From Minisyncoccota bacterium (GTDB lineage: Bacteria > Patescibacteriota > Minisyncoccia > Phycocordibacterales > JABAAK01): DNA of 64,000 nt. The notes under the pieces are model-generated. The model made no database searches. It was not told the DNA's origin and saw only the letters and a list, made by a program, of their open reading frames with translations. Positions within the stretch are counted from its first letter, which is position 1; every line of letters starts with the position of its first letter. The stretch is from positions 105,241 to 169,240 of the forward strand of contig OY764332.1 in assembly GCA_963668425.1 (NCBI GenBank), read 5' to 3'. Both the position numbers and the translations under genes were made by a program. Below, one piece after another: positions 29,707 through 52,606 of this stretch.

Positions 29707-30543
29707 TTAGGAACATCCGTTTTGTGCGTCTGTCGCCTTTGTGCTTATCAAACCTGTTTTATATACATCAATACTCCGTGTAGCAGTGATGCCGGTTGTG
29801 GCAACAAAAGCAATACGAACCCCCTCATACGTGTCTGAAATTCTCTTTGTTGCGCCGTTCGGCTCAATGGCACTGTAGGTGTATGTTGTCCCGACAACTG
29901 GCATTACATTCACATATACCTCTCGGGTCGGCTGTTCAATTGAAAAATGGATATCAAAATTATTTCGTGCTGTTTTTGTCGCGTCATACCCACTTACGAA
30001 TGGATTGGGAGAGCTACAAAGCATAGAATCGGAAGCGCAGCTCTGGTCGCTGTTCAGCACCAACTGCTTTCGGGTATATCGTGGAGCGGCGTCAGCGTCT
30101 ATAAAGCATACGTCAACAAAATATTGTTCGGCTGTCTCCAATGAAACGGTCGATGATCCTGGCACCTCTCCATCCCGTGCAGTCGCGAAATTAGACCCTT
30201 CAGCAAAACCGGCAAACGGTCCGGCTGCCCTTTCAAGACGAAAATCCTTTAGGATTCCGTCCCGCACCTTTATACGCACCACCTGAAACCCCTGTGTCGG
30301 CAGCACTGTGTTTTGCGAGAACGTTTCTGCGGAGCCGGAACGCTCTTGCGCAAACCGAATATATTCTCCTAACTCATCAACTCGTATCCGTAGCAGTGAA
30401 TGGCTTGTAAATGATGCGTAGTTAACAAACACCACCCCCACAATAATCCCCATGATGGCAATGGAAACTAATACTTCAATCAGTGTAAACCCCCCATCAT
30501 CACCCCCACGCAAAGAAAAAAAACGCACAGCGGACATATGCAA
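29707..30543 (-). CDS. type IV pilin-like protein (minor pilin/pseudopilin-like)
   Basis: Prepilin N-terminus GFTLIEVLVSIAIMGIIVGV after a short leader. Large variable C-domain. Confidence 0.75.
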   Translation of the reverse strand: MHMSAVRFFSLRGGDDGGFTLIEVLVSIAIMGIIVGVVFVNYASFTSHSLLRIRVDELGEYIRFAQERSGSAETFSQNTVLPTQGFQVVRIKVRDGILKDFRLERAAGPFAGFAEGSNFATARDGEVPGSSTVSLETAEQYFVDVCFIDADAAPRYTRKQLVLNSDQSCASDSMLCSSPNPFVSGYDATKTARNNFDIHFSIEQPTREVYVNVMPVVGTTYTYSAIEPNGATKRISDTYEGVRIAFVATTGITATRSIDVYKTGLISTKATDAQNGCS

Positions 30544-30558
30544 GTAGTATACCTTGAC

Positions 30559-31005
30559 CTACATCACGGTAGTGATGTCGTCTACCTGACTTCCCTGCTC
30601 CATTTGTGACGGCTGATATTTAATCGCATTCTGATAAAGATATGCAGGCATGCGGACACAAACAATAATCACAAAAACAATAAGCCCTCCCACCAAATGC
30701 TTTTTTGCTGACTGCCGCTCTCTTTCTAAGAAACGAAATATCAGAAAAAATATGAAAATAACAAACGGAGATATCATAAGAGCAGCCAGCATCGCTCCTT
30801 TAATAGGGCTCTGCAACAGGTCTTCCTTAAGGAATAATGTCAAATAATCTGATAAAAGACCACCACCAACACCCAACAATACACCAAGGATTAACAAAGC
30901 AATGTCTCTTTGTATATCGCCCTGCTGTGACATATTTTTATCGTTATGCATCTTTTTAGTTTTTTCGTTGCTCATTATTTTTAATTTTACACTATACCGT
31001 TGCAT
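30559..31005 (-). CDS. hypothetical membrane protein (paralog of 32075..32467)
   Basis: 148 aa, three or four TM segments. The C-terminal codons and 3' flank (41 bp CAAGTAGTATACCTTGACCTACATCACGG...) are shared with the paralog. Confidence 0.55.
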   Translation of the reverse strand: MQRYSVKLKIMSNEKTKKMHNDKNMSQQGDIQRDIALLILGVLLGVGGGLLSDYLTLFLKEDLLQSPIKGAMLAALMISPFVIFIFFLIFRFLERERQSAKKHLVGGLIVFVIIVCVRMPAYLYQNAIKYQPSQMEQGSQVDDITTVM

Positions 31006-31059: not shown

Positions 31060-31803
31060 TTGCTCCCAAGTATGAAATTGACTTGGTTTTGTATATGTAC
31101 TAACATACTGAACATGAATAATAATTCCTACCAAAAACCAGAGTTCCGGAAAGATGGCTTTCATTGTTCCTTTTGTGGTATATATGCCAACCATGACTGG
31201 AAAAATCTTTTTCTGGCAGAGCGTCTGGATTATGGGAATGAGTGGAAACCAATTTCAATATCATCTCAATGTGACCACTGCAAGAGATATGCCCTATGGA
31301 TTCCTAGTGAGGGGGGTGAGTGGCATATGGTTTATCCAAGAAAAATGCTTTCCCCTCTGGCGCATTCTGACATGCCAGGGTTAGTGAAAGCATTATATGA
31401 AGAGGCGAGAAGTATATCAGACCAATCACCAAGAGCAGCTGCTGCCTTATTACGATGCGCTCTTGAAAGGTTAACTGAGCACCTTGGAGAAAAAGATGGT
31501 TCGTTATATGCAAGAATTGGAAATCTGGCTCAGAAAGGTTTGCCAAAGATGGTTTTAAAGGCGTTAGATATTGTACGTATCACCGCAAACGAAGGCGGTT
31601 CTCATTGTGGAGAGATTGATTTGACAGGAAAAGACGGAAAAGAGGTTGTTGACAAATTGTTTTTGTTGGTGAACTTCATTGTTGAAAAAACAATTACAGA
31701 GCCCAAAGAAGTTACTATGATGTTTTTGGACCTGCCTGAAAGCAAGAAAGATGGTGTGCGAAATAGGGATAATAAACATGAAAAGAAGATAGAAAATGAG
31801 TGA
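31060..31803 (+). CDS. DUF4145 (HEPN-clan-like) domain protein
   Basis: AAAALLRCALERLTEHLG...LAQKGLPKMVLKALDIVRITANEGGSH is characteristic of DUF4145. Confidence 0.6.
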   Translation: MLPSMKLTWFCICTNILNMNNNSYQKPEFRKDGFHCSFCGIYANHDWKNLFLAERLDYGNEWKPISISSQCDHCKRYALWIPSEGGEWHMVYPRKMLSPLAHSDMPGLVKALYEEARSISDQSPRAAAALLRCALERLTEHLGEKDGSLYARIGNLAQKGLPKMVLKALDIVRITANEGGSHCGEIDLTGKDGKEVVDKLFLLVNFIVEKTITEPKEVTMMFLDLPESKKDGVRNRDNKHEKKIENE

Positions 31804-32074
31804 GATATTGGTATAGAGTAACAAAAAAATAACCGATAAATATTACAGATTGCTCTGGAAAAGAATTTAATTAATGGTATTAAAATACCCGAAATTGAAA
31901 ATGGGTCTTCCTTTATTAATACTAATGTCCTTGTCAACCCAACCCAGCCCAGCTTTGGGAGGTAAGCCAGATCCAGATCCTGCGTATAGAATATACGACG
32001 GAAACCTGTCTATGGTTTCGTTTATTGTTTCCATTTTTTGTTTTTGTGGTTGCATACAAGTAGTATACCTTGAC

Positions 32075-32467
32075 CTACATCACGGCAGTAGTGGCGTTGC
32101 TGTATAGGTACATAAACGTGAGAGCGCAGATAAACACGGTAAAGAACAAATAACATTTCCAATCACTCTTCCAGGCCGACACTAAGAAATCAGACATGTT
32201 TTGACCTTCTTCTGCCTGATAGAGATTTAACAACAAGAATATAAAAGTAGAAAATAGGAAAACCATAAAAGTAGTAATGATTGAATTTAAAAAAGGGTTT
32301 TTTAATAACATGTCCCTTGAGAATATTGTTAGGTGGCTTCCAACATAGCCGCCTACTACACCCGCTAATATACCCATCACAAAAAGAGTGTTTTCCTTAA
32401 AAGTGAGTTTTTCTTTTTCCTGAATAGCGGATTCTCCCCTTTCAATGTTTTTATCTGTCTTACTCAT
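32075..32467 (-). CDS. hypothetical membrane protein (paralog of 30559..31005)
   Basis: 130 aa. MGILAGVVGGYVGSHLTIFSRDMLLKNP parallels LGVLLGVGGGLLSDYLTLFLKEDLLQSP in the paralog. Confidence 0.55.
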   Translation of the reverse strand: MSKTDKNIERGESAIQEKEKLTFKENTLFVMGILAGVVGGYVGSHLTIFSRDMLLKNPFLNSIITTFMVFLFSTFIFLLLNLYQAEEGQNMSDFLVSAWKSDWKCYLFFTVFICALTFMYLYSNATTAVM

Positions 32468-35407: not shown

Positions 35408-36226
35408 ATGAACCAGGAAAATAAAGTTAACAAAGATGATTTAAAGAAGGTTGGAAAAATAGGATTTGAGCACAATGGGAAAAAATATAACCTGTTTCGC
35501 TATTTTTGGTCTCCAGACAAAGCGGAAGGAGATCTTGAAATAGCAATAACCATTCCTAAAAAATATACAAACATTACAGATAGTGTTTATTATCTTAAAA
35601 GGTTGCGTGCTGGAAAAGTTGTAGAAAGGCATAAAAGTTACTCAAAACTTCTTAAAATAAGTTTTCATAGTAGTGGTGCATATCATATTTCTGGGGAAAA
35701 CATGCCAAACAGAAGTAAAAACCCTTATGCGATGGGAGCATCATTTGGGGGATATTCTGGTGCACCACTTGGTTTCATGTACACAGATGACTTATCATCA
35801 TTTATGCATAGTGGGAATATAACCGATGATTTAAACACACGCTTTATTGTTGACAGCGGGCACTCAACTATTTTCGTTGCACTGTATAGAGTAGAAAATA
35901 CTTTATACAGGAGAAAAGACGGTATGGGCATTGCTGAAGAACTTAGAGATCATATCATTAGCAGTCTTGAAAGAGACAAAGATAGAATTGGCATATGTTT
36001 GGAAGACCCTTACTTTATTCCGCTAGATTATCCAGGGAACACAGACCATATATTCCTACTAGCTTGCTTCCGTGGAAATCCCAAACCAAAAGAAATAATG
36101 GAAGGAACTTTTGTCGGAACATATGCCTACGAGGCAGATGGCGATGCCTTGTCCCTGTATGTTAACAGAGATGATGAGAAAGTTCCTGAAATCAAGCGGC
36201 GCCCCAGGATACCGCTTGCATTTTAA
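35408..36226 (+). CDS. hypothetical protein
   Basis: 273-aa ORF (MNQENKVNKDD start), no recognised motif. Confidence 0.45.
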   Translation: MNQENKVNKDDLKKVGKIGFEHNGKKYNLFRYFWSPDKAEGDLEIAITIPKKYTNITDSVYYLKRLRAGKVVERHKSYSKLLKISFHSSGAYHISGENMPNRSKNPYAMGASFGGYSGAPLGFMYTDDLSSFMHSGNITDDLNTRFIVDSGHSTIFVALYRVENTLYRRKDGMGIAEELRDHIISSLERDKDRIGICLEDPYFIPLDYPGNTDHIFLLACFRGNPKPKEIMEGTFVGTYAYEADGDALSLYVNRDDEKVPEIKRRPRIPLAF

Positions 36227-36245
36227 CAAGTGTTACGTTTTCAAT

Positions 36246-36446
36246 ATGGTTGGTAGTGTTTCTGGCATCGCACTATTCGCATTACTTATAGTACCGCTAA
36301 CAGTGTTGTTGGTGAATACCCTCTTTAGATTGTGGGAATATGCTTTTGATAAATCAGTTCGTTTTGCCGCTATTTTATCTTGCACAATCCCCTTAGTGTT
36401 GCTTGCAGAGTTGCTTTGTTGGGCTAGACTGTTTGGGTGGTATTAG
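36246..36446 (+). CDS. small 2-TM protein, 3' portion shared with 43306..43641 (left direct repeat)
   Basis: LFRLWEYAFDKSVRFAAILSCTIP is identical to the paralog. About 95 bp of DNA identity (36322-36416 vs 43515-43609). Confidence 0.5.
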   Translation: MVGSVSGIALFALLIVPLTVLLVNTLFRLWEYAFDKSVRFAAILSCTIPLVLLAELLCWARLFGWY

Positions 36447-36451
36447 TTTTA

Positions 36452-38408: not shown

Positions 38409-38530
38409 ATAGTTTCAGTATACCAAGCAGTGTCGGAATTTCAAAATGTTCTTTGCCATCTTCTTGCATGTTTTTTCTTGTATTTTGTCTATATCGTCAT
38501 CTACAGATTGCACAAACCTCACCTATTCCA

Positions 38531-38568
38531 ACGCAAAACGGTTAAAAGGGTGTCTATAGCAATCGCGC
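38531..38568. repeat. 38-bp conserved element B, copy 1, upstream of the ATPase gene
   Basis: CAAAACGGTTAAAAGGGTGTCTATAGCAATCGCGCCAC, identical to 42226-42263. Confidence 0.8.
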
Positions 38569-38646
38569 CACCACCACTTTTCATCAAAACCAACACACAG
38601 CATAAAACTACTCCCCTCTTTATACATTCCTACATTTTTTAAACCT

Positions 38647-42171: not shown

Positions 42172-42225
42172 ACTTTACTGTACCCTAATTTGACCTTTTT
42201 TATCAAGGGCAAGGTTTGCCCCATG

Positions 42226-42263
42226 CAAAACGGTTAAAAGGGTGTCTATAGCAATCGCGCCAC
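42226..42263. repeat. 38-bp conserved element B, copy 2, upstream of the AlbA_2 gene
   Basis: Identical to 38531-38568. Followed by an ATCTCAACCAATGACAACC motif that recurs at 43731. Confidence 0.8.
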
Positions 42264-43305: not shown

Positions 43306-43641
43306 ATGAAACAAGAGAAGATACAATGTGTTCTAAAAGCTGTGTTGCGTTGGTTGTTTTGCTGGATACCGCTTGCATTTTTGATAGGTGTAATGTCATT
43401 GCTCCTGCTCTATGTTTTCGGTTTCTATTATGATAGTGATGTTTCCGGTTTCTATGATAGTGATGTCGTACCATTCACGCTGCCTGCAGTGCCCTTAATG
43501 GTATTGGTGGTGAATATCCTCTTTAGATTGTGGGAATATGCTTTTGATAAATCAGTTCGTTTTGCCGCTATTTTATCTTGCACAATCCCCTTTGTGTTGT
43601 TTCTATCTCTGCTTTTTTTGTCTGTTTTGTTTGGGTGGTAG
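43306..43641 (+). CDS. small membrane protein (full-length copy carrying the right direct repeat)
   Basis: 111 aa, TM helix, DSDV repeat, then LFRLWEYAFDKSVRFAAILSCTIP shared with 36246..36446. Confidence 0.5.
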   Translation: MKQEKIQCVLKAVLRWLFCWIPLAFLIGVMSLLLLYVFGFYYDSDVSGFYDSDVVPFTLPAVPLMVLVVNILFRLWEYAFDKSVRFAAILSCTIPFVLFLSLLFLSVLFGW

Positions 43642-44071
43642 TACTTAATAACGACACTGTATGAATAAAAATTTCTAGATGTCACTATATCCGTGCTGTG
43701 AACCTCTAACTACACACCAAGTGCTGATACTATCTCAACCAACGACAACCATCCTTTATATTTTCAATCAGGAGTGAGTCAGTAAAAAATCTGTTGGAAG
43801 TTGCTTATAGGTGTAATTTCGTGGATATGGCGATGGGCAAATGTTAAAAATGCTCTTATAGCATCGAATTTCATACATATAAGGGTGGTTTTTGTAATAA
43901 TCAGACAAAAAATACTCTTATATCTCTAAAAATCAGACCTATAAGGATTTAACCCTTATTTCATAAGGCGAAACGGCTATAGAACTACAAAAACCCTATA
44001 TCTAAAGAGGATTTTATGTAGTGAAAGTATATTATAGTAGCCATCTTTTTATTGAGGAATTATATACTTAA

Positions 44072-44569
44072 TTACCCCAGCAGTCCGTTATTGACCTCTC
44101 TTTGAAACTCTTGTATGGCATACACACCAATCAAGGCACGATCAGGACTGACCTGATCCTTCAACCACTCCACTGCCTTTTTTTTATATCCACCTCCATC
44201 AAGTAGTATTATTGTTGGTACGTCTGCTTTAATAATGTTGTGCAGTAAAAAAGGATACTTCTCATCCACCGATCCTGATGACTGTTGCCATTTGCATTCT
44301 ATGACTAATCCATCATCAAACAACTCCTTATTGAAAACTATAAAATCACACTTCCTTGGAGATTCATATATTGTAGTTCCGATAGGTACTTGTTTTGAAT
44401 ACTGTTTTCCACCAATCAAACTGATGTTTTTATACAACTGATTCTTGTGATCCCGGAACTCTGTATACCCTTTGCCTATCAAAACACTTTCAATAAGCAT
44501 CTCTAAACTTTCTCCAGTTTTGTTTGCCTTTGTTCCGCCTGTATCAGTAGTTTTTGATGATGAGTTCAT
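44072..44569 (-). CDS. putative type II restriction endonuclease (PD-(D/E)xK fold)
   Basis: CDFIVFNKELFDDGLVIECKWQ gives a D-x13-E-C-K motif. Overlaps the 3' end of the Dam-family methyltransferase gene. Confidence 0.5.
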   Translation of the reverse strand: MNSSSKTTDTGGTKANKTGESLEMLIESVLIGKGYTEFRDHKNQLYKNISLIGGKQYSKQVPIGTTIYESPRKCDFIVFNKELFDDGLVIECKWQQSSGSVDEKYPFLLHNIIKADVPTIILLDGGGYKKKAVEWLKDQVSPDRALIGVYAIQEFQREVNNGLLG

Positions 44570-45425
44570 TTTCTTTTCCTCGTTGATGTGCTTTACAGGA
44601 CACCGATCTGCTCGCCTGTATTACCTCTATAGTATACTTGCTGTATAAAAAGCGTATGAGTGGTGTATCGCTATTTGAGAGCAGAAAATATGATCCAACT
44701 TTGTTTATTTCATTACAAAAATCAGCAAGTTTTTCATGCTCCTCCTTACCGAAACCTGCACCGTTGTACTGACTGTATGTTGTGTGGTACGGGGGATCAA
44801 GATAGTAAAAGGTGTTCTTTTTTGGTTTCAATTGCGTAAAATCTTTTTGTTCTATGACGGTGTCTTTTAAGGACGCAGAACAAGCACGCAGATTATCCTC
44901 ATCAAGTATTGACGGATTTTCATAAGACCCTATAGGAACATTGAAACCGCCTGACTTGTTTACTCTGTACAGACCATTGAAACAAGTTTTGTTAAGGTAT
45001 ATGAATATAGCCGCAATTTTTGCACGATCTGTTTCTGTGTTCAATCTTGCTCTCACTCTGCCGTAGTATTCTTTGTTGTGATTTTTCTTGTGCCGTTTTA
45101 GGTGCCGTACAACATCATCAACAGTATCACGAACTGCACTGTAAGTTGCTATCAGCGTGAAGTTTATATCGGACAGGTGGGCATTCTCTGGCTGTATTTC
45201 AAAAAAAAGTGCACCGCCACCAACAAATGGTTCACAATAATATCCGGTAAAGCCGACCTTTGCTTGTTCAGTCAGATGTGGCAATGCTGATCGCTTTCCT
45301 CCTACCCACTTCACGAATGGTTTAGCAGATATGTGTAAATCACTTACATCCTGACCCGCAATGGTTTGTAAAACATCATTAAATGATCCATCAATCGGAT
45401 CGTGGTGTTTTCTTTCTCGTATCAT
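44544..45425 (-). CDS. DNA adenine methyltransferase (Dam/D12 class N6-MTase)
   Basis: FVKWVGGKRSALPHL, EPFVGGGA, CFNGLYRVNKSGGFNVPIG and YYLDPPY (DPPY motif) are collinear with E. coli Dam. Confidence 0.85.
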   Translation of the reverse strand: MIRERKHHDPIDGSFNDVLQTIAGQDVSDLHISAKPFVKWVGGKRSALPHLTEQAKVGFTGYYCEPFVGGGALFFEIQPENAHLSDINFTLIATYSAVRDTVDDVVRHLKRHKKNHNKEYYGRVRARLNTETDRAKIAAIFIYLNKTCFNGLYRVNKSGGFNVPIGSYENPSILDEDNLRACSASLKDTVIEQKDFTQLKPKKNTFYYLDPPYHTTYSQYNGAGFGKEEHEKLADFCNEINKVGSYFLLSNSDTPLIRFLYSKYTIEVIQASRSVSCKAHQRGKENELIIKNY

Positions 45426-45550
45426 ATTTATTTTGTAATTACCTTGTAAGAGGTGGTAGGACTTTCAGTTATGTTTACCAGTATACCGTTGAATACATCA
45501 GTAATCTTTTCAGCCCTGCTGGTGTGTGATATACTACTAATTGAAACTAA

Positions 45551-45748
45551 TTGACACTTTTTAATAGGTTCACTGTTAATACCGCTATGAAAAAGAACAG
45601 GAAGATGACAATCAAAGAGTATGCAGAAAAAAGGAATATTGATTTTGAAAGATTATTTTCTGGTGAGAATCCAAACATATCTATGCAATCCTATCTAAAA
45701 AAAGATAGGACTTCCAAGTGTTGCAAAAGTATTTTGTATATTGAATAA
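45551..45748 (+). CDS. small ORF (65 aa), possible HTH regulator
   Basis: Divergent from the R-M pair. Ends at the left inverted-repeat terminator module. Confidence 0.3.
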   Translation: MTLFNRFTVNTAMKKNRKMTIKEYAEKRNIDFERLFSGENPNISMQSYLKKDRTSKCCKSILYIE

Positions 45749-45754
45749 CGAGAA

Positions 45755-45838
45755 AGCGTAATGCCGGTTAAGTGTCGTATCACAGCACCGAAACATACGT
45801 TGCTTAGAAAAAGGTCCGTCAGGGACTTTTTTTGTTTT
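45755..45838. repeat. inverted-repeat element, copy 1 (contains bidirectional terminator-like hairpin)
   Basis: AAGCGTAATGCCGGTTAAGTGTCGTATCACAGCACCGAAACATACGTTGCTTAGAAAAAGGTCCGTCAGGGACTTTTTTTG. Reverse complement of 52524-52606 is about 93% identical. Similarity extends about 25 bp further. Confidence 0.85.
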
Positions 45839-46030
45839 TTTACAGCATCAACGCTCTGGCAATTAGGTTCTCGACTGAAGTACAACAATTGTGCATATTA
45901 GAGGGCGGAGTGGCTCTCAAGAGGTGTGTAAAATAAGGTGATAATTTGGTTTTCAACACTTCTTGCGGAAAAAATATATTTTTGATATACTGTTAGTGAC
46001 TTGAGGTTATCTCAGGTGGCAAAACCCCTA

Positions 46031-46780
46031 TCAAAGGGGCTTTTTGTTTCTCCTTTTTCTGCCCTCTGGCAATAACCTGCAACTCCCCTCGTCGTCACGA
46101 TGGATAAGTTTTTGCTTTTCCATAGAAACCAACTTTTTTTTAAACCTGGTTTTATTTTGTTCTTTGTTCATGCCAAATAACTCTTCAAGTGTCTTATCTC
46201 CATCTTCAAGAGATAGTAATATTTCTTTTTCTGAGGTCAATCTTGGGTCAGTAATGACCTTCTTGTTGCCAACTTTGAGTATGTCAGGAAACATAATATC
46301 TGCAGATTCATCAATCTTTTGTTGTATTTGTTTGGTATCCATATCGCTGTATAGTCGTATTAGCTCAGCATATATCCATTTGGTTGCATAGAAGGTGAAA
46401 TTAGTGTCAATACGCTCCAGATTAACCCCGCCGAGGTGTGCGGCATCTCTCTCATTACGAAAACCGAGCAAGATTTTAACCAATGGAGCAACTTTTGTTC
46501 TTAGTGATACATCAGCACCTGAATTGTTTGCTAGATTATTAATAATCTTTCCAGTATCAGAAATCTGTTTGCCTATTGGGGTGAATTTTTTTGTTAAAAT
46601 ATATTCAAAAATTCGCAGTATTACCTCACAGAATTTTCCTACAGATGTTTCATGATGCTCAAAGTCACTGCTTTGATACCTACCTATCACTTTTTTGTAT
46701 TCAGCGGTCAGCGTCTTTTCTAATTCCTTTGGAATGCCCGCAAAAAGAGGGTGTTTATTTTTCTGTTTTTTTCTTGCCAT
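46031..46780 (-). CDS. DUF4145/HEPN-like protein (Rx4-6H-like motif GFRNERDAAH)
   Basis: LVKILLGFRNERDAAHLGGVNL parallels LKALDIVRITANEGGSHCGEIDL of the DUF4145 protein at 31060. Last gene of a three-gene overlapping operon. Confidence 0.5.
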   Translation of the reverse strand: MARKKQKNKHPLFAGIPKELEKTLTAEYKKVIGRYQSSDFEHHETSVGKFCEVILRIFEYILTKKFTPIGKQISDTGKIINNLANNSGADVSLRTKVAPLVKILLGFRNERDAAHLGGVNLERIDTNFTFYATKWIYAELIRLYSDMDTKQIQQKIDESADIMFPDILKVGNKKVITDPRLTSEKEILLSLEDGDKTLEELFGMNKEQNKTRFKKKLVSMEKQKLIHRDDEGSCRLLPEGRKRRNKKPL

Positions 46781-47243
46781 GTTTTTTTCTCTTACTCTTA
46801 TGGTATTTTTTAGAAATGTTTTTCAGTGAATCTTCATTGGGGAGTTGTGATACTATCTCTCTCGTGGTTGCATTTATCTTATATTTCCCATGCCCAGCAC
46901 CACTTATATACCCATATGTCCCTATGGAGTGCTGAATGTCTTTACCAATATTCCTCCCATTCATTAATGAAACCTCCGTCTCTAAAAAAGATTCTAATGC
47001 TTTTTTTTCAATGACTTCATTACTACTGCCATTGGTTAAATAATATACAGCAAGAGCGACGATAAAATAGTAGTTTTTTGTTTCTTTTTCTTGAAAAAAA
47101 GTGTCCCATTCGTTTGGGATAAGTTTTAACTCACCTTTGGTTGGGTTATTTGTTGTTCTTTCTGCAGATACTGATTGATTCTTTAACAAATCTCTAATCT
47201 CCTCCAAGAGTTTTATTATTACTTTTTCGTTTTCTGTGTTCAT
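46755..47243 (-). CDS. hypothetical protein (middle gene of three-gene operon)
   Basis: 162 aa. Overlaps the downstream gene by 26 nt and the upstream gene by 4 nt. Confidence 0.45.
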   Translation of the reverse strand: MNTENEKVIIKLLEEIRDLLKNQSVSAERTTNNPTKGELKLIPNEWDTFFQEKETKNYYFIVALAVYYLTNGSSNEVIEKKALESFLETEVSLMNGRNIGKDIQHSIGTYGYISGAGHGKYKINATTREIVSQLPNEDSLKNISKKYHKSKRKKHGKKKTEK

Positions 47244-47671
47244 TTTTCTTCTTCTTTTCTTAACTCTGCGAGCGCCTCAAGCCCTGTGTTGGTCAGTGAG
47301 TACATCCTATTCCTATGCTTGCCAGAGATAACGTCAACAAACCCTTTTTTGTGCAACCGAGCAATCACATCACTTGGGTTTCCAGGCGTTTTTTCTTTTA
47401 CGGTTTTGTAGGACTCTTGAATCGCTTTCAGGTCAAACCCATCCTTACTGTTCTCATTATCCAGTATTGACATGATCGCAAGGCACTTTTCTACGTCTGA
47501 TTCCAAGCTATATTGCAAGAAGATCTCTCGCTTGCTTAGGTTTTTTTTAATAGATGATTTCACCTCGCTGGAAGACATCTGGCTCTCTATTGCTGCAACC
47601 CTTTTTACAAGTGCATCAAAATCTTCTTTTGTTATTGTCTTTGTCGTCATAATATTTATAGCATACAGCAC
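47240..47671 (-). CDS. winged-helix domain protein (first gene of three-gene operon)
   Basis: C-terminal NPSDVIARLHKKGFVDVISGKHRNRMYSLTNTGLEAL is wHTH-like. Confidence 0.45.
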   Translation of the reverse strand: MLYAINIMTTKTITKEDFDALVKRVAAIESQMSSSEVKSSIKKNLSKREIFLQYSLESDVEKCLAIMSILDNENSKDGFDLKAIQESYKTVKEKTPGNPSDVIARLHKKGFVDVISGKHRNRMYSLTNTGLEALAELRKEEEK

Positions 47672-47958
47672 TGTTAAGAATCTGTCAATGCATCATAATA
47701 ATGTTTCTATTTTTGTTTTTTGTTGTATATGCTTTTCAGTAGATAAAAAGTATAATATTCTTATTTTACCATGGTCTATCTATATTTATTTTCAATATTT
47801 TTACAAAAATCAAAATAAAAAAATAAAATCGTTTTTTGAGTACCTTAAAAAGTATAAAAATATGTTTATTTATTAGGTTAAAATTTATCTTTTGTAACTG
47901 CTTGCTATAAAAAATAATTTTTTTGACTTCTTATTAATTTTTATGTATACTTACTCAT

Positions 47959-48546
47959 ATGATGACATTTAAAGAAAAAATTTACTTACTATTGTTAGAT
48001 AAGTGCAATTTGATGACTATATCTATGGCAGTTATTGCTGTTATATCTGTTACTATAATTTGCTCACCATCTGTTTTGAAATATGCTATTGGCCATACCT
48101 TATTGCAATATGTTTTTCCAGCATCCGCTGCAATATCTACAGCATGTCTTGCTTTTTTTACTTATTTAAATTACAGAATAAAGCTTAATGGTGTAGTATT
48201 GTTCATTTGCAGAGAATCTGGTTTGTATGACCACCTTAAGGCGAAAAGAGCGATAGATGGAAAGTCAGAGCAGTACTTATATATTCAAGTCAATAATGCA
48301 TGCAGGAATGCCATCACTCTTTCCATTTTCAAAAGTGATAATGGCTTTGAAATGCCACTTGCAAGTAAAAAAGAAAGTGATGCGTTTAGTTTTAATTGGA
48401 TAATAGAAGCAGGCAAACGTCATCATAATTTATTTTCAATAGATACAAAACAATTTGAGACACTCAAAAAGAGTAAGTATCTATATGTCATAGACTTTTC
48501 AGGCAAGCCGTATAAGTTATCTCTGCCCGACCAACCTGCAAAATAG
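47959..48546 (+). CDS. hypothetical membrane protein
   Basis: 195 aa with N-terminal TM helices. Preceded by a 260-bp region of over 80% AT. Confidence 0.45.
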   Translation: MMTFKEKIYLLLLDKCNLMTISMAVIAVISVTIICSPSVLKYAIGHTLLQYVFPASAAISTACLAFFTYLNYRIKLNGVVLFICRESGLYDHLKAKRAIDGKSEQYLYIQVNNACRNAITLSIFKSDNGFEMPLASKKESDAFSFNWIIEAGKRHHNLFSIDTKQFETLKKSKYLYVIDFSGKPYKLSLPDQPAK

Positions 48547-48888
48547 CACTGACATGAATGAGTGAAATGCCCCTGGCGAAGGTGGATATGCTCCAAGTTA
48601 ATGCCTTCATGGACCAAAACCTCTATATTGCAATATACTCTTGTCGTAAACCTCACTATACACCAAGCGACAATAATGTGCCAATAAATATCGTCAGCTT
48701 CCCGACTGCGGTGTGGCAATTATTTTACCTAATAAATATATTAGGTTAAAATCTGCCACAACTTCTTGAGGTAAGGTATGCTTTTTGCCTTTTCTTCGAG
48801 TGTTTCTTTTTTTATTTTCTGCTCAAGCCATTTTTTTGTGATCTCATCGCACCCCTACTACCTTTTTATCACATGGCAACATATTTAT

Positions 48889-49755
48889 CTAAAACCCCTC
48901 TTTTTGCAGATCTTTTAGTATTTCTTTTGCCTTTTTGCTGAGTTTTTTGGGGTATGCGATGTGGCAGAATACAATCAATCGGTCGTTGCCTGCTGGTCGT
49001 GGTATTCCTTTTCCTTGAAATACAATATGGGTTCCCTCTCTGCTCATTTCTGGCACTGTTACTGCGAGTGTGTTGCCCCGTATGTCCTGTATTTCTTTTG
49101 TGGTGCCGAGCACTGCCTCACTCGGTGTTAGCTGTAGTGGGCATACCACATCGCCACCTTGGCGTTCAAACACTGGGTGTCTTTGCACTCGTATCTGTAT
49201 GAATAGGTCTCCTGGTGCTGATTGCCCGTCTTTTGATATCTCTCCTTTTCCTGCGTACTGCAGTCGTGCTCCCGGCTCTATTCCTGCCGGTATCTGTACC
49301 TCAATTGTCTCGGATGCTTTTCTTCGGTATGGTATGGTGAATTGTTTTGTTGTGCCGAATATTGACTCTTCAAATGAGATAGTTAGGTCAATCTGTATAT
49401 TCGCTCCACGGTTCATTGCTTCACGAAACATTGCTTTACGGTTCATTATTTCACGAAACATCTGGTTAATGGCATCGTCAAAGCCACCCGCACTACCGCC
49501 GAAATCAAACCCCTCAAAGCCAGAGGTGTCAGAGCCACCTGCACCTGCGCTTCGTGGGTCCACTCCGGCGTCATACTGTGCCCTTTTTTGTTGATTGCTC
49601 AATATTTGATATGCCTCATTCACTTCTTTGAATTTATTCACGTCACCTCCTTTTTTATCAGGATGATACTGATGTGCTAATGTACGAAACGCCTTTTGAA
49701 TATCCTCTTGGGATGCTCCTCTGTCAACACCGAGTATCTTGTAGTAATCTTTCAT
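48889..49755 (-). CDS. dnaJ: DnaJ-family co-chaperone (J domain; lacks Cys-rich zinc finger)
   Basis: MKDYYKILGV...HQYHPDK J domain, G/F-rich region, C-terminal substrate-binding domains, no CxxCxGxG repeats. Internal 8-aa duplication AMFREAMN. Confidence 0.8.
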   Translation of the reverse strand: MKDYYKILGVDRGASQEDIQKAFRTLAHQYHPDKKGGDVNKFKEVNEAYQILSNQQKRAQYDAGVDPRSAGAGGSDTSGFEGFDFGGSAGGFDDAINQMFREIMNRKAMFREAMNRGANIQIDLTISFEESIFGTTKQFTIPYRRKASETIEVQIPAGIEPGARLQYAGKGEISKDGQSAPGDLFIQIRVQRHPVFERQGGDVVCPLQLTPSEAVLGTTKEIQDIRGNTLAVTVPEMSREGTHIVFQGKGIPRPAGNDRLIVFCHIAYPKKLSKKAKEILKDLQKEGF

Positions 49756-52513: not shown

Positions 52514-52523
52514 TGTTGTAAAA

Positions 52524-52606
52524 AACGAAAAAGATCCCTGACGGACCTTTCTCTAAGCAACTTATGTTTCGGTGCCGTGATACGACACTTAACCGGCATT
52601 ACGCTT
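52524..52606. repeat. inverted-repeat element, copy 2
   Basis: Reverse complement matches 45755-45838 with 5-6 mismatches. Confidence 0.85.

Follow-up and report, generated by a model that had tools for sequence, protein, structure and literature searches.

The definition of HEPN domains rests on three features (PMC3710099): an Rx4-6H motif where helix 3 ends or the loop between helices 3 and 4 begins, a polar residue (N, D or H) straight after the arginine of this motif, and, in helix 2, a conserved acidic residue that usually forms part of Ex3[KR]. In the present study, we analysed a 64,000-nucleotide stretch of the genome of a Minisyncoccota bacterium, a tiny-genome member of the Candidate Phyla Radiation (contig OY764332.1, positions 105,241 to 169,240 of the forward strand; the whole stretch is called the window below) and, within it, an operon of three overlapping genes, A, B and C. 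The last gene, C, encodes a HEPN-like, probably catalytic protein that carries a C-terminal winged helix; the two genes before it encode small predicted winged-helix proteins. A first-pass annotation, made from the sequence alone, had taken the three genes for a candidate defence or abortive-infection operon.

Several described systems resemble this locus in part. AbiJ (Abi_C, PF14355) and C both join a HEPN-type domain to another domain with a presumed role in sensing or binding (PMC3710099). The order of the domains differs: C has the HEPN-like part at the N-terminus and the winged helix at the C-terminus, whereas AbiJ has AbiJ-NTD domains at the N-terminus and the HEPN domain at the C-terminus. 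C also differs from AbiJ in its near-obligate separate winged-helix partner gene and in the spacing of six residues from R to H. The type IX retron (Retron-Kva2) likewise combines a HEPN nuclease with a separate winged-helix protein. This protein wraps the nuclease and has one HEPN-binding domain near the active site, and together with the msDNA it encloses the active site, which is suppressed until infection (bioRxiv 10.64898/2026.07.14.738597). The retron supplies the mechanistic model used below, but the operon differs from it: we found no reverse transcriptase open reading frame (ORF) in 45400-48900 and no Rfam match near the operon, the retron HEPN protein lacks the Rx4-6H motif that C has, and no sequence homology was detectable, the only traces being stray weak matches to WH_III-A and HTH_IX of PADLOC in a few relatives.

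The HEPN-MNT systems (HepT-MntA, type II/VII toxin-antitoxin (TA) systems) are likewise small two-gene cassettes, in which a HEPN ribonuclease (RNase) toxin is neutralised by the product of the neighbouring gene. However, A and B are winged-helix proteins without a nucleotidyltransferase match, and C, with a winged helix of its own, is double HepT in size. DARNA/PD-T7-3 joins an N-terminal HEPN RNase to a C-terminal nucleic-acid-sensing domain and acts in abortive infection; other HEPN proteins come under the control of protein partners, of RNA or of covalent modification (bioRxiv 10.64898/2026.02.22.705581). Unlike C, DARNA is a one-gene system whose protein of about 450 aa has an Rx4H motif and, at the C-terminus, a Pds5-like domain, and C itself has no PD-T7-3 match. 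DUF4145 (PF13643) shares with C a HEPN-type motif that ends in H and is followed by G and an acidic residue, and is frequently found near restriction-modification (R-M) systems, but its domain architecture differs from that of C. For a HEPN-winged-helix protein with a homologous winged-helix partner, we found no counterpart in four hidden Markov model (HMM) libraries, in solved structures or in the searched literature.

The predicted HEPN effector and its winged-helix partners

The features of the operon are as follows (positions in the window).

47688-47660, minus strand: predicted sigma-70-type promoter, TTGACA-17 nt-TATGCT (promoter scan, 10/12)
47240..47650, minus strand: gene A, 136 aa; N-terminal helix, Lys/Ser-rich linker, C-terminal winged helix
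46755..47243, minus strand: gene B, 162 aa; helix 4-22, disordered linker, winged helix 46-135, Lys-rich tail
46031..46780, minus strand: gene C, 249 aa; N-terminal HEPN-like helical domain and C-terminal winged helix, predicted effector
46286..46753, minus strand: HEPN-like domain of C, residues 10-165 (DSSP of the model, weak Foldseek matches)
46613..46627, minus strand: E52-x3-R56 (EVILR) in helix 2, the second HEPN signature Ex3[KR] (translation)
46436..46459, minus strand: predicted catalytic motif R108-N109-E-R111-D-A-A-H115, Rx6H (translation)
46046..46249, minus strand: C-terminal winged helix of C, residues 178-245 (model, Foldseek)
46025..46039, no strand assigned: GC-rich hairpin GCCCCT/AGGGGT on the stop codon of C (read from the sequence)

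The protein C belongs to a large family. A word-indexed search gave 10 close homologs of 45-75% identity, which aligned over the full length, and a profile search of a database of 1.84 billion representatives gave 666 clusters (at 50% identity) at E<=1e-3 and 333 at E<=1e-10. Among the best 150 of the 666 clusters, nearly all proteins have 245-270 aa and were matched across most of their length. All the named members that we looked up are labelled "hypothetical protein", and C has no match in Pfam, NCBIfam, PADLOC or PHROGs.

We aligned 111 relatives, with about 25% mean identity to C, and found that F50, E52, R108, N109, R111, H115, D125, W135, E139, R142 and G240 are invariant or nearly so. 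The arginine R108 is present in 110 of the 111 relatives, N109 in 103 (with S in the other 8), R111 in 110 and H115 in all; the spacing from R to H is six residues in 109. In the second signature, E52 occurs in 111/111 and R56 in 92/111. In the AlphaFold model of C (pLDDT 77.9), the N-terminal part is a four-helix HEPN-like bundle, with helices 18-36 and 40-63, a short insert at 76-84, helix 91-109, a low-confidence loop at 109-123 and helix 126-144. All three HEPN signatures are thus found where the definition places them: R108-N109-x5-H115 ends helix 91-109, with the polar N109 after the arginine, and E52-x3-R56 lies in helix 40-63. The motif had been described at first as compatible with Rx4-6H, and a conserved Rx6H at the structural position expected of HEPN proteins agrees with that description. 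Judging from these residues and the predicted fold, C is HEPN-like and probably catalytic.

The matches of C to known HEPN families are weaker. The best of the few Foldseek matches in the PDB that are not winged-helix proteins are the HEPN proteins TT1696 (1ufb_A; TM 0.59, probability 0.94), HepT (6m6u_G) and HEPN-MNT (8xeh_B), with E-values of about 0.3. The sole Pfam family that recurs in the relatives of C is Abi_C, which was matched in 12 of the 111, always over the motif region; the E-values were 0.02-0.17 and the scores 12.4-14.3 bits, below the gathering score of 24 bits, so that membership was not supported. The first-pass annotation had placed C in DUF4145, and we could not sustain this assignment. 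C gave no Pfam match to PF13643 at E<=1 (gathering score 23.1 bits), and DUF4145 is absent from the 25 families most often matched by the 111 relatives. The window contains a DUF4145 protein (31060..31803, E 1.9e-11), with which the motif of C had been aligned; hhalign picks the same register, but the alignments (E 0.28 and 0.11) are not significant. In summary, the structure and profile searches left a fold and motifs compatible with HEPN, while the DUF4145 assignment is unsupported and all the family matches are below significance.

The C-terminal domain of C is a winged helix (H183-193, H198-204, H210-222, E226-228 and E233-236 in the model), similar to DtxR, MarR and Z-alpha with a Foldseek probability of 1.0 and root-mean-square deviations of 1.2-3 A. 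The winged-helix fold (H1-strand-H2-H3-hairpin wing topology and similarity to known domains) was recognised from models in the C-terminus of C and in B, and from sequence profiles in A. In A, residues 64-141 gave sub-threshold matches to PadR, HTH_34 and HTH_45, and comparison of the A family with the C-terminal winged helix of C by hhalign gave a probability of 94% (E 1.4e-7, 71 columns). By profile comparison, then, the winged helices of A and C are homologous, and the winged helix-turn-helix noted earlier at the C-terminus of the first protein is borne out. The homologs of A form a family of 48 proteins, none of them named. Its weakest match, P0215 from Chloroflexi (E 5e-4), is probably unrelated; it adjoins a DUF1786 gene and has no C homolog beside it.

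The middle protein had been considered to lack any recognisable domain, and it indeed gave no profile match. Its AlphaFold model, with pLDDT of about 90 over residues 50-140, nevertheless has an H-strand-H-H-hairpin topology, and the top Foldseek matches are all winged-helix proteins (Rok, MarR, TubR and FOXN1 [TM 0.65]; E 0.05-1). Paralogy between A and B was not significant from the six close sequences alone, and was moderately supported once the broader alignment of A was used (A family versus B, hhalign probability 47%, E 1.9e-4, 94 columns). B is probably a diverged paralog of A, as far as these alignments tell. Only six homologs of B are known. Against the relative L004 (loci related to the operon are numbered L001 and so on), dN/dS is 0.14 for A and 0.22 for B; because these values are low and C has full-length homologs, we regard the three genes as real.

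The layout of the genes is that of an operon. The limits of the minus-strand genes are those of the ORF list for B (46755..47243, 162 aa) and C (46031..46780, 249 aa); for A, the list has 47240..47671 (143 aa, GTG start). We corrected the start of A to the ATG at 47650 because the GTG at 47671 lies inside the promoter and the homologs begin at this ATG; the deposited gene call (P0169, 136 aa, 100% identity) agrees. The junction of A and B reads ...GAAAAATGAACACAG, with an overlap of 4 nt (ATGA), and that of B and C reads ...AAACATGGCAAGAAAAAAACAGAAAAATAA, with an overlap of 26 nt, so that the overlaps given at first were confirmed from both the ORF list and the junctions. In an alignment of the upstream regions of six related loci, the -35 hexamer TTGACA of the promoter is invariant. 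The ATG of A lies about 10 nt from the -10 hexamer, and thus the leader of the operon mRNA is very short or absent; from this spacing, the mRNA may be leaderless. No Shine-Dalgarno sequence is evident ahead of A (47650-47688). We searched the region upstream of A for a conserved structured RNA; the promoter alone is conserved, and there is no Rfam match. The hairpin at the stop codon of C, as read from the sequence, is likely the end of the transcription unit; a terminator scan places it on the plus strand, and on the minus strand just four T follow the stem. The overlaps, the conserved promoter and the hairpin at the end of C together define A, B and C as one predicted autonomous transcription unit.

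Distribution of the two-gene core

The order A-B-C with its overlaps recurs in L001-L004. The locus L005 has an extra copy of B, and L021 has an extra upstream winged-helix gene and is thus a four-gene version. The close clade includes Candidatus Paceibacterota (L021, OZ241963.1). Recurrence of the order in L001-L005 and L021 agrees with the initial view of the three genes as one overlapping operon and shows them to be co-conserved. In distant relatives of C (24-31% identity), C is preceded by one or two small genes on the same strand, as follows.

L007-L010: genes of 161 aa and 152 aa
L011-L013: genes of 135 aa and 187 aa
L014-L015 (Ca. Saccharibacteria): genes of 190 aa and 181 aa
L006 and L020: one gene of 188-191 aa

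With the A-family HMM, the gene beside C was matched in L007 (E 1e-13), as was the 188-aa gene in L006; in L014 both upstream genes were matched (about 5e-7). A scan of Joint Genome Institute (JGI) metagenomes with one subclade of C gave 404 relatives, of which we kept 80 loci. With a single HMM iteration, an A-like ORF of about 180-200 aa was detected on the strand of C, at -45 to +64 nt from it, in 69/80 loci, and it is directly upstream of C in 68 of the 69 loci that have at least 400 nt of upstream sequence. No conserved third gene was found upstream of the A-like gene in this large subfamily. The conserved core is therefore a two-gene module consisting of an A-like gene and C, and B is a lineage-specific addition to it. 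Conservation of the triplet holds in the close clade, which keeps A-B-C, but not in the wider family, where the A-like gene and C are what is kept.

An alignment-based locus search (alignment A1) found one genome locus and none in viral or JGI metagenome contigs. When C, P0029 and P0081 were compared with plasmids and phages by tblastn, the only match was a homolog of the N-domain on a Natronomonas plasmid. This hypothetical protein of 290 aa (WP_011324391.1, Natronomonas pharaonis plasmid PL131, L016 4941-5813) has the HEPN-like N-domain (hhalign 99.6%); the archaeal protein has a different C-terminal part and no adjoining A-like gene.

In the case of L017, from Hyphomonadaceae (GCA_016791425.1, 6001-7358), an A-like protein of 201 aa is paired with a different effector of 251 aa. 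This effector has a classical C-terminal HEPN motif, RNSSAH, and a precomputed Pfam match to PF27235 (AF_1680), as well as weak matches to DUF4145 and the DARNA/PD-T7-3 HEPN domain (PD-T7-3, E 1.3e-4). Its N-terminus possibly forms an A-like winged helix, although the similarity is not significant (hhalign E 0.028). This pairing suggests that the A-like winged helix can associate with a second type of HEPN effector, and the pair would be a domain-swapped version of the module. Our literature search on AF_1680/PF27235 and on HEPN in Saccharibacteria gave nothing relevant. The pair is inserted between flagellar genes and dxs.

Genomic context and replacement of the A allele

The operon is surrounded by the following elements.

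44544..45425: D12 Dam-type methyltransferase, downstream of the operon
44072..44569: PDDEXK_11/DpnII-like nuclease, downstream of the operon
45754-45840 and 52520-52606: 87-nt inverted repeat, 93% complementary, bracketing dnaK, dnaJ, a 195-aa ORF and the operon

The R-M genes are located about 600 nt downstream of the operon. Both arms of the inverted repeat are conserved in L004 (4081-4167 and 12296-12382), and the repeat could serve recombination or inversion, or could be a terminator element present twice. Each arm holds a terminator-like hairpin. The position of the operon inside the inverted-repeat segment and next to an R-M system, as described in the first-pass annotation, was thus recovered, with the repeat, the Dam-type gene and the DpnII-like gene all located.

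Comparison of the window with L004, its closest relative, showed which parts are exchanged. The genes dnaK and dnaJ have 97-99% nucleotide identity. An insertion of 965 bp (47926-48890) that carries the 195-aa ORF separates dnaJ from the operon in the window and is absent from L004. Between C and the repeat arm, L004 has an EcoRI-methylase-like gene and a GmrSD gene. Beyond the arm, the Dam-type methyltransferase and DpnII-like nuclease of the window stand against an N6_N4 methyltransferase and a KAP NTPase in L004. The operon lies in a variable, defence-rich hotspot, next to R-M cassettes that are interchangeable. The link to the R-M system implied by the first-pass annotation fails, the adjacent system having been replaced in L004. 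The divergence of the genes between the window and L004 is as follows.

A, window 47240-47650 versus L004 7594-8004: nucleotide identity 71%, dS 1.57
B: nucleotide identity 92%, dS 0.25
C: nucleotide identity 98.7%, dS 0.013
dnaJ: nucleotide identity 98.0%, dS 0.06
dnaK: nucleotide identity 98.8%, dS 0.04

The steep fall in divergence from A to C, between otherwise near-identical genomes, points to replacement of the A allele through recombination, the breakpoint lying in B.

Some other copies of the cassette have defence genes as neighbours: Schlafen/AlbA_2, AAA_15, a type III restriction-modification system and Mrr in L002, GmrSD in L003, and PLD and NgoFVII-like nucleases in L006 and L020. 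TA genes are found near the copies in L005, L011 and L017. The copies in L001, L007, L014 and L017 are among housekeeping genes, and no R-M system lies beside those in L001, L007 and L014. We also surveyed 120 flanking ORFs of 29 subclade loci with Pfam. Seven families (about four kinds of protein) recur, each twice, namely DUF3644, Abi_2, phage integrase (catalytic and SAM-like), AAA_30, AAA_19 and AAA_5, and one BsuBI/PstI nuclease was found. The module behaves like a small autonomous cassette of patchy distribution; a link with defence islands can be seen but is not strong.

Beside the four-gene operon of L021 (5973-8487), we noticed a 259-aa ORF, DpnI-like as judged by eye, and a 467-aa ORF whose RYIDDM motif suggests a reverse transcriptase; this neighbourhood may be another defence-island context. 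The 195-aa ORF of the window (47959..48546, plus strand) is divergent from the operon and has hydrophobic N-terminal segments and no family match; this hotspot could thus hold a second cassette that consists of a single gene. A 65-aa ORF (45551-45748, plus strand; sequence MTLFNRFTVNTAMKKNRKMTIKEYAEKRNIDFERLFSGENPNI...), located in the 600 nt that separate C from the methyltransferase gene, runs opposite to the latter and might be a small helix-turn-helix controller of the R-M system. The dnaJ gene contains three tandem repeats offset by 15 nt (49403-49461), which encode repeated MFREIMNRKAMFREAMNRG in the Gly-rich linker region of DnaJ. Upstream of the operon, the window has direct repeats of 181 nt (36268-36448 and 43466-43646, 81%), which overlap 111-aa ORFs (36111..36446 and 43306..43641), and of 44 nt (38528-38571 and 42220-42263, 95%; 30538-30581 and 32054-32097, 89%). 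The same region holds Schlafen/AlbA_2, AAA_15/AAA_21 and DUF4145 genes. These repeats may be cassette boundaries or paralogous small genes.

Possible functions of the module

The domains and the genomic context suggest a role in defence or abortive infection, and we would give about an even chance to the reading that the locus is a self-contained HEPN toxin or abortive-infection conflict module. In such a module, C would dimerise through its HEPN domain, and the dimer would hold an RNase site independent of metal. The partner A, in this lineage together with B, would bind C, nucleic acid or both through the shared winged helix and the N-terminal helix and hold the RNase inactive; a trigger, for example phage infection or loss of the partners, would release C. 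The released RNase would then cleave RNA and cause growth arrest. We propose control by the partner because the winged-helix and HEPN pair of the type IX retron is a precedent. The three-gene form would be a lineage-specific elaboration, by duplication of the partner, of the widespread two-gene cassette.

Several results weigh against this reading. C has no statistically significant match, in sequence or structure, to any HEPN family, and a profile search of the PDB sequences (hmmsearch) found no HEPN protein. Model confidence for C is lowest in the loop that contains the motif (109-123). No component of the operon fits any model of PADLOC-DB v2.0.0; the 111 relatives of C and 10 partner proteins gave only scattered weak winged-helix or CARF-HTH matches when compared with PADLOC. 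The collections of phages, IMG/VR contigs and bacterial plasmids yielded no copy of the cassette. In the large subfamily, most flanking genes have housekeeping functions, and only a few belong to defence or mobile elements.

Other explanations must be weighed against the same evidence. The locus might be a TA cassette that serves addiction only, in which C is a HEPN toxin and A and B are winged-helix antitoxins and autorepressors, so that the cassette stabilises the island without taking part in phage defence. The gene order, with small DNA-binding genes first and the toxin last, the overlapping frames and the autonomous promoter speak for such a cassette, as do the many copies amid housekeeping genes and the TA genes near three of them (L005, L011 and L017). 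We consider it rather unlikely, as several copies are in defence islands and the swap of the A allele resembles the exchange of specificity in immune systems; in practice, the TA and defence roles are not exclusive. A little less probable again is a non-toxic, regulatory or nucleoid-associated DNA-binding complex, in which the N-domain of C would be a non-catalytic sensor or a dimerisation bundle. The winged helices with basic tails in all three proteins, the lack of a significant HEPN match, and Rok, TubR and MarR among the top Foldseek matches of B are what one would expect of such a complex. It does not account for the near-invariance, at about 25% identity, of R108, N109, H115, E52 and D125, which lie exactly at the HEPN catalytic positions; the patchy, cassette-like distribution and the pairing of an A-like partner with a classical RNxxAH effector in L017 also argue against it.

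The proximity of the R-M genes raises a further explanation, that C is a HEPN accessory of the DUF4145 family belonging to the adjacent Dam/DpnII-like R-M system. DUF4145 proteins are often linked to R-M systems (PMC3710099), and hhalign picks the same motif register in C and DUF4145. This explanation is largely refuted, and we think it very improbable: C has no DUF4145 match in Pfam and hhalign E-values of only 0.11-0.28, the neighbouring R-M system is replaced in the closest relative and missing beside three other copies (L001, L007 and L014), and the operon has its own promoter and hairpin.

A broader proposal can also be made, which we put forward tentatively and consider doubtful as a whole, if less so than the TA explanation. 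Together, C and the A-like partner may represent abundant but so far unrecognised immune systems with two to four components. Hundreds of clusters at 50% identity would belong to this family, in lineages of the Candidate Phyla Radiation (CPR; Ca. Paceibacterota and Ca. Saccharibacteria) and on many unassigned contigs from metagenomes; an archaeal plasmid carries an N-domain homolog, and A-like partners also occur in a Hyphomonadaceae genome. The HEPN RNase and its partners, which have the same winged helix, would assemble on a nucleic-acid cue or compete for it. The partner gene might be an exchangeable specificity or sensor subunit, as the swap of the A allele suggests, and the ultra-small CPR genomes might have expanded the module by partner duplication.

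HEPN toxin modules are already known as a theme; what is new here is an abundant family without annotation in the four libraries searched. If C is not a nuclease, the finding would be reduced to a conserved winged-helix regulatory cassette. If the proposed function is correct, an unnamed family that is common in environmental genomes would join the HEPN defence and toxin repertoire, and the module would be a compact model of a HEPN RNase under the control of a winged-helix partner homologous to part of it, for which nature offers forms of two, three and four genes. The module would further enlarge the immune and toxin repertoire of CPR bacteria, whose genomes of about 0.7 Mb spare little room for dispensable genes.

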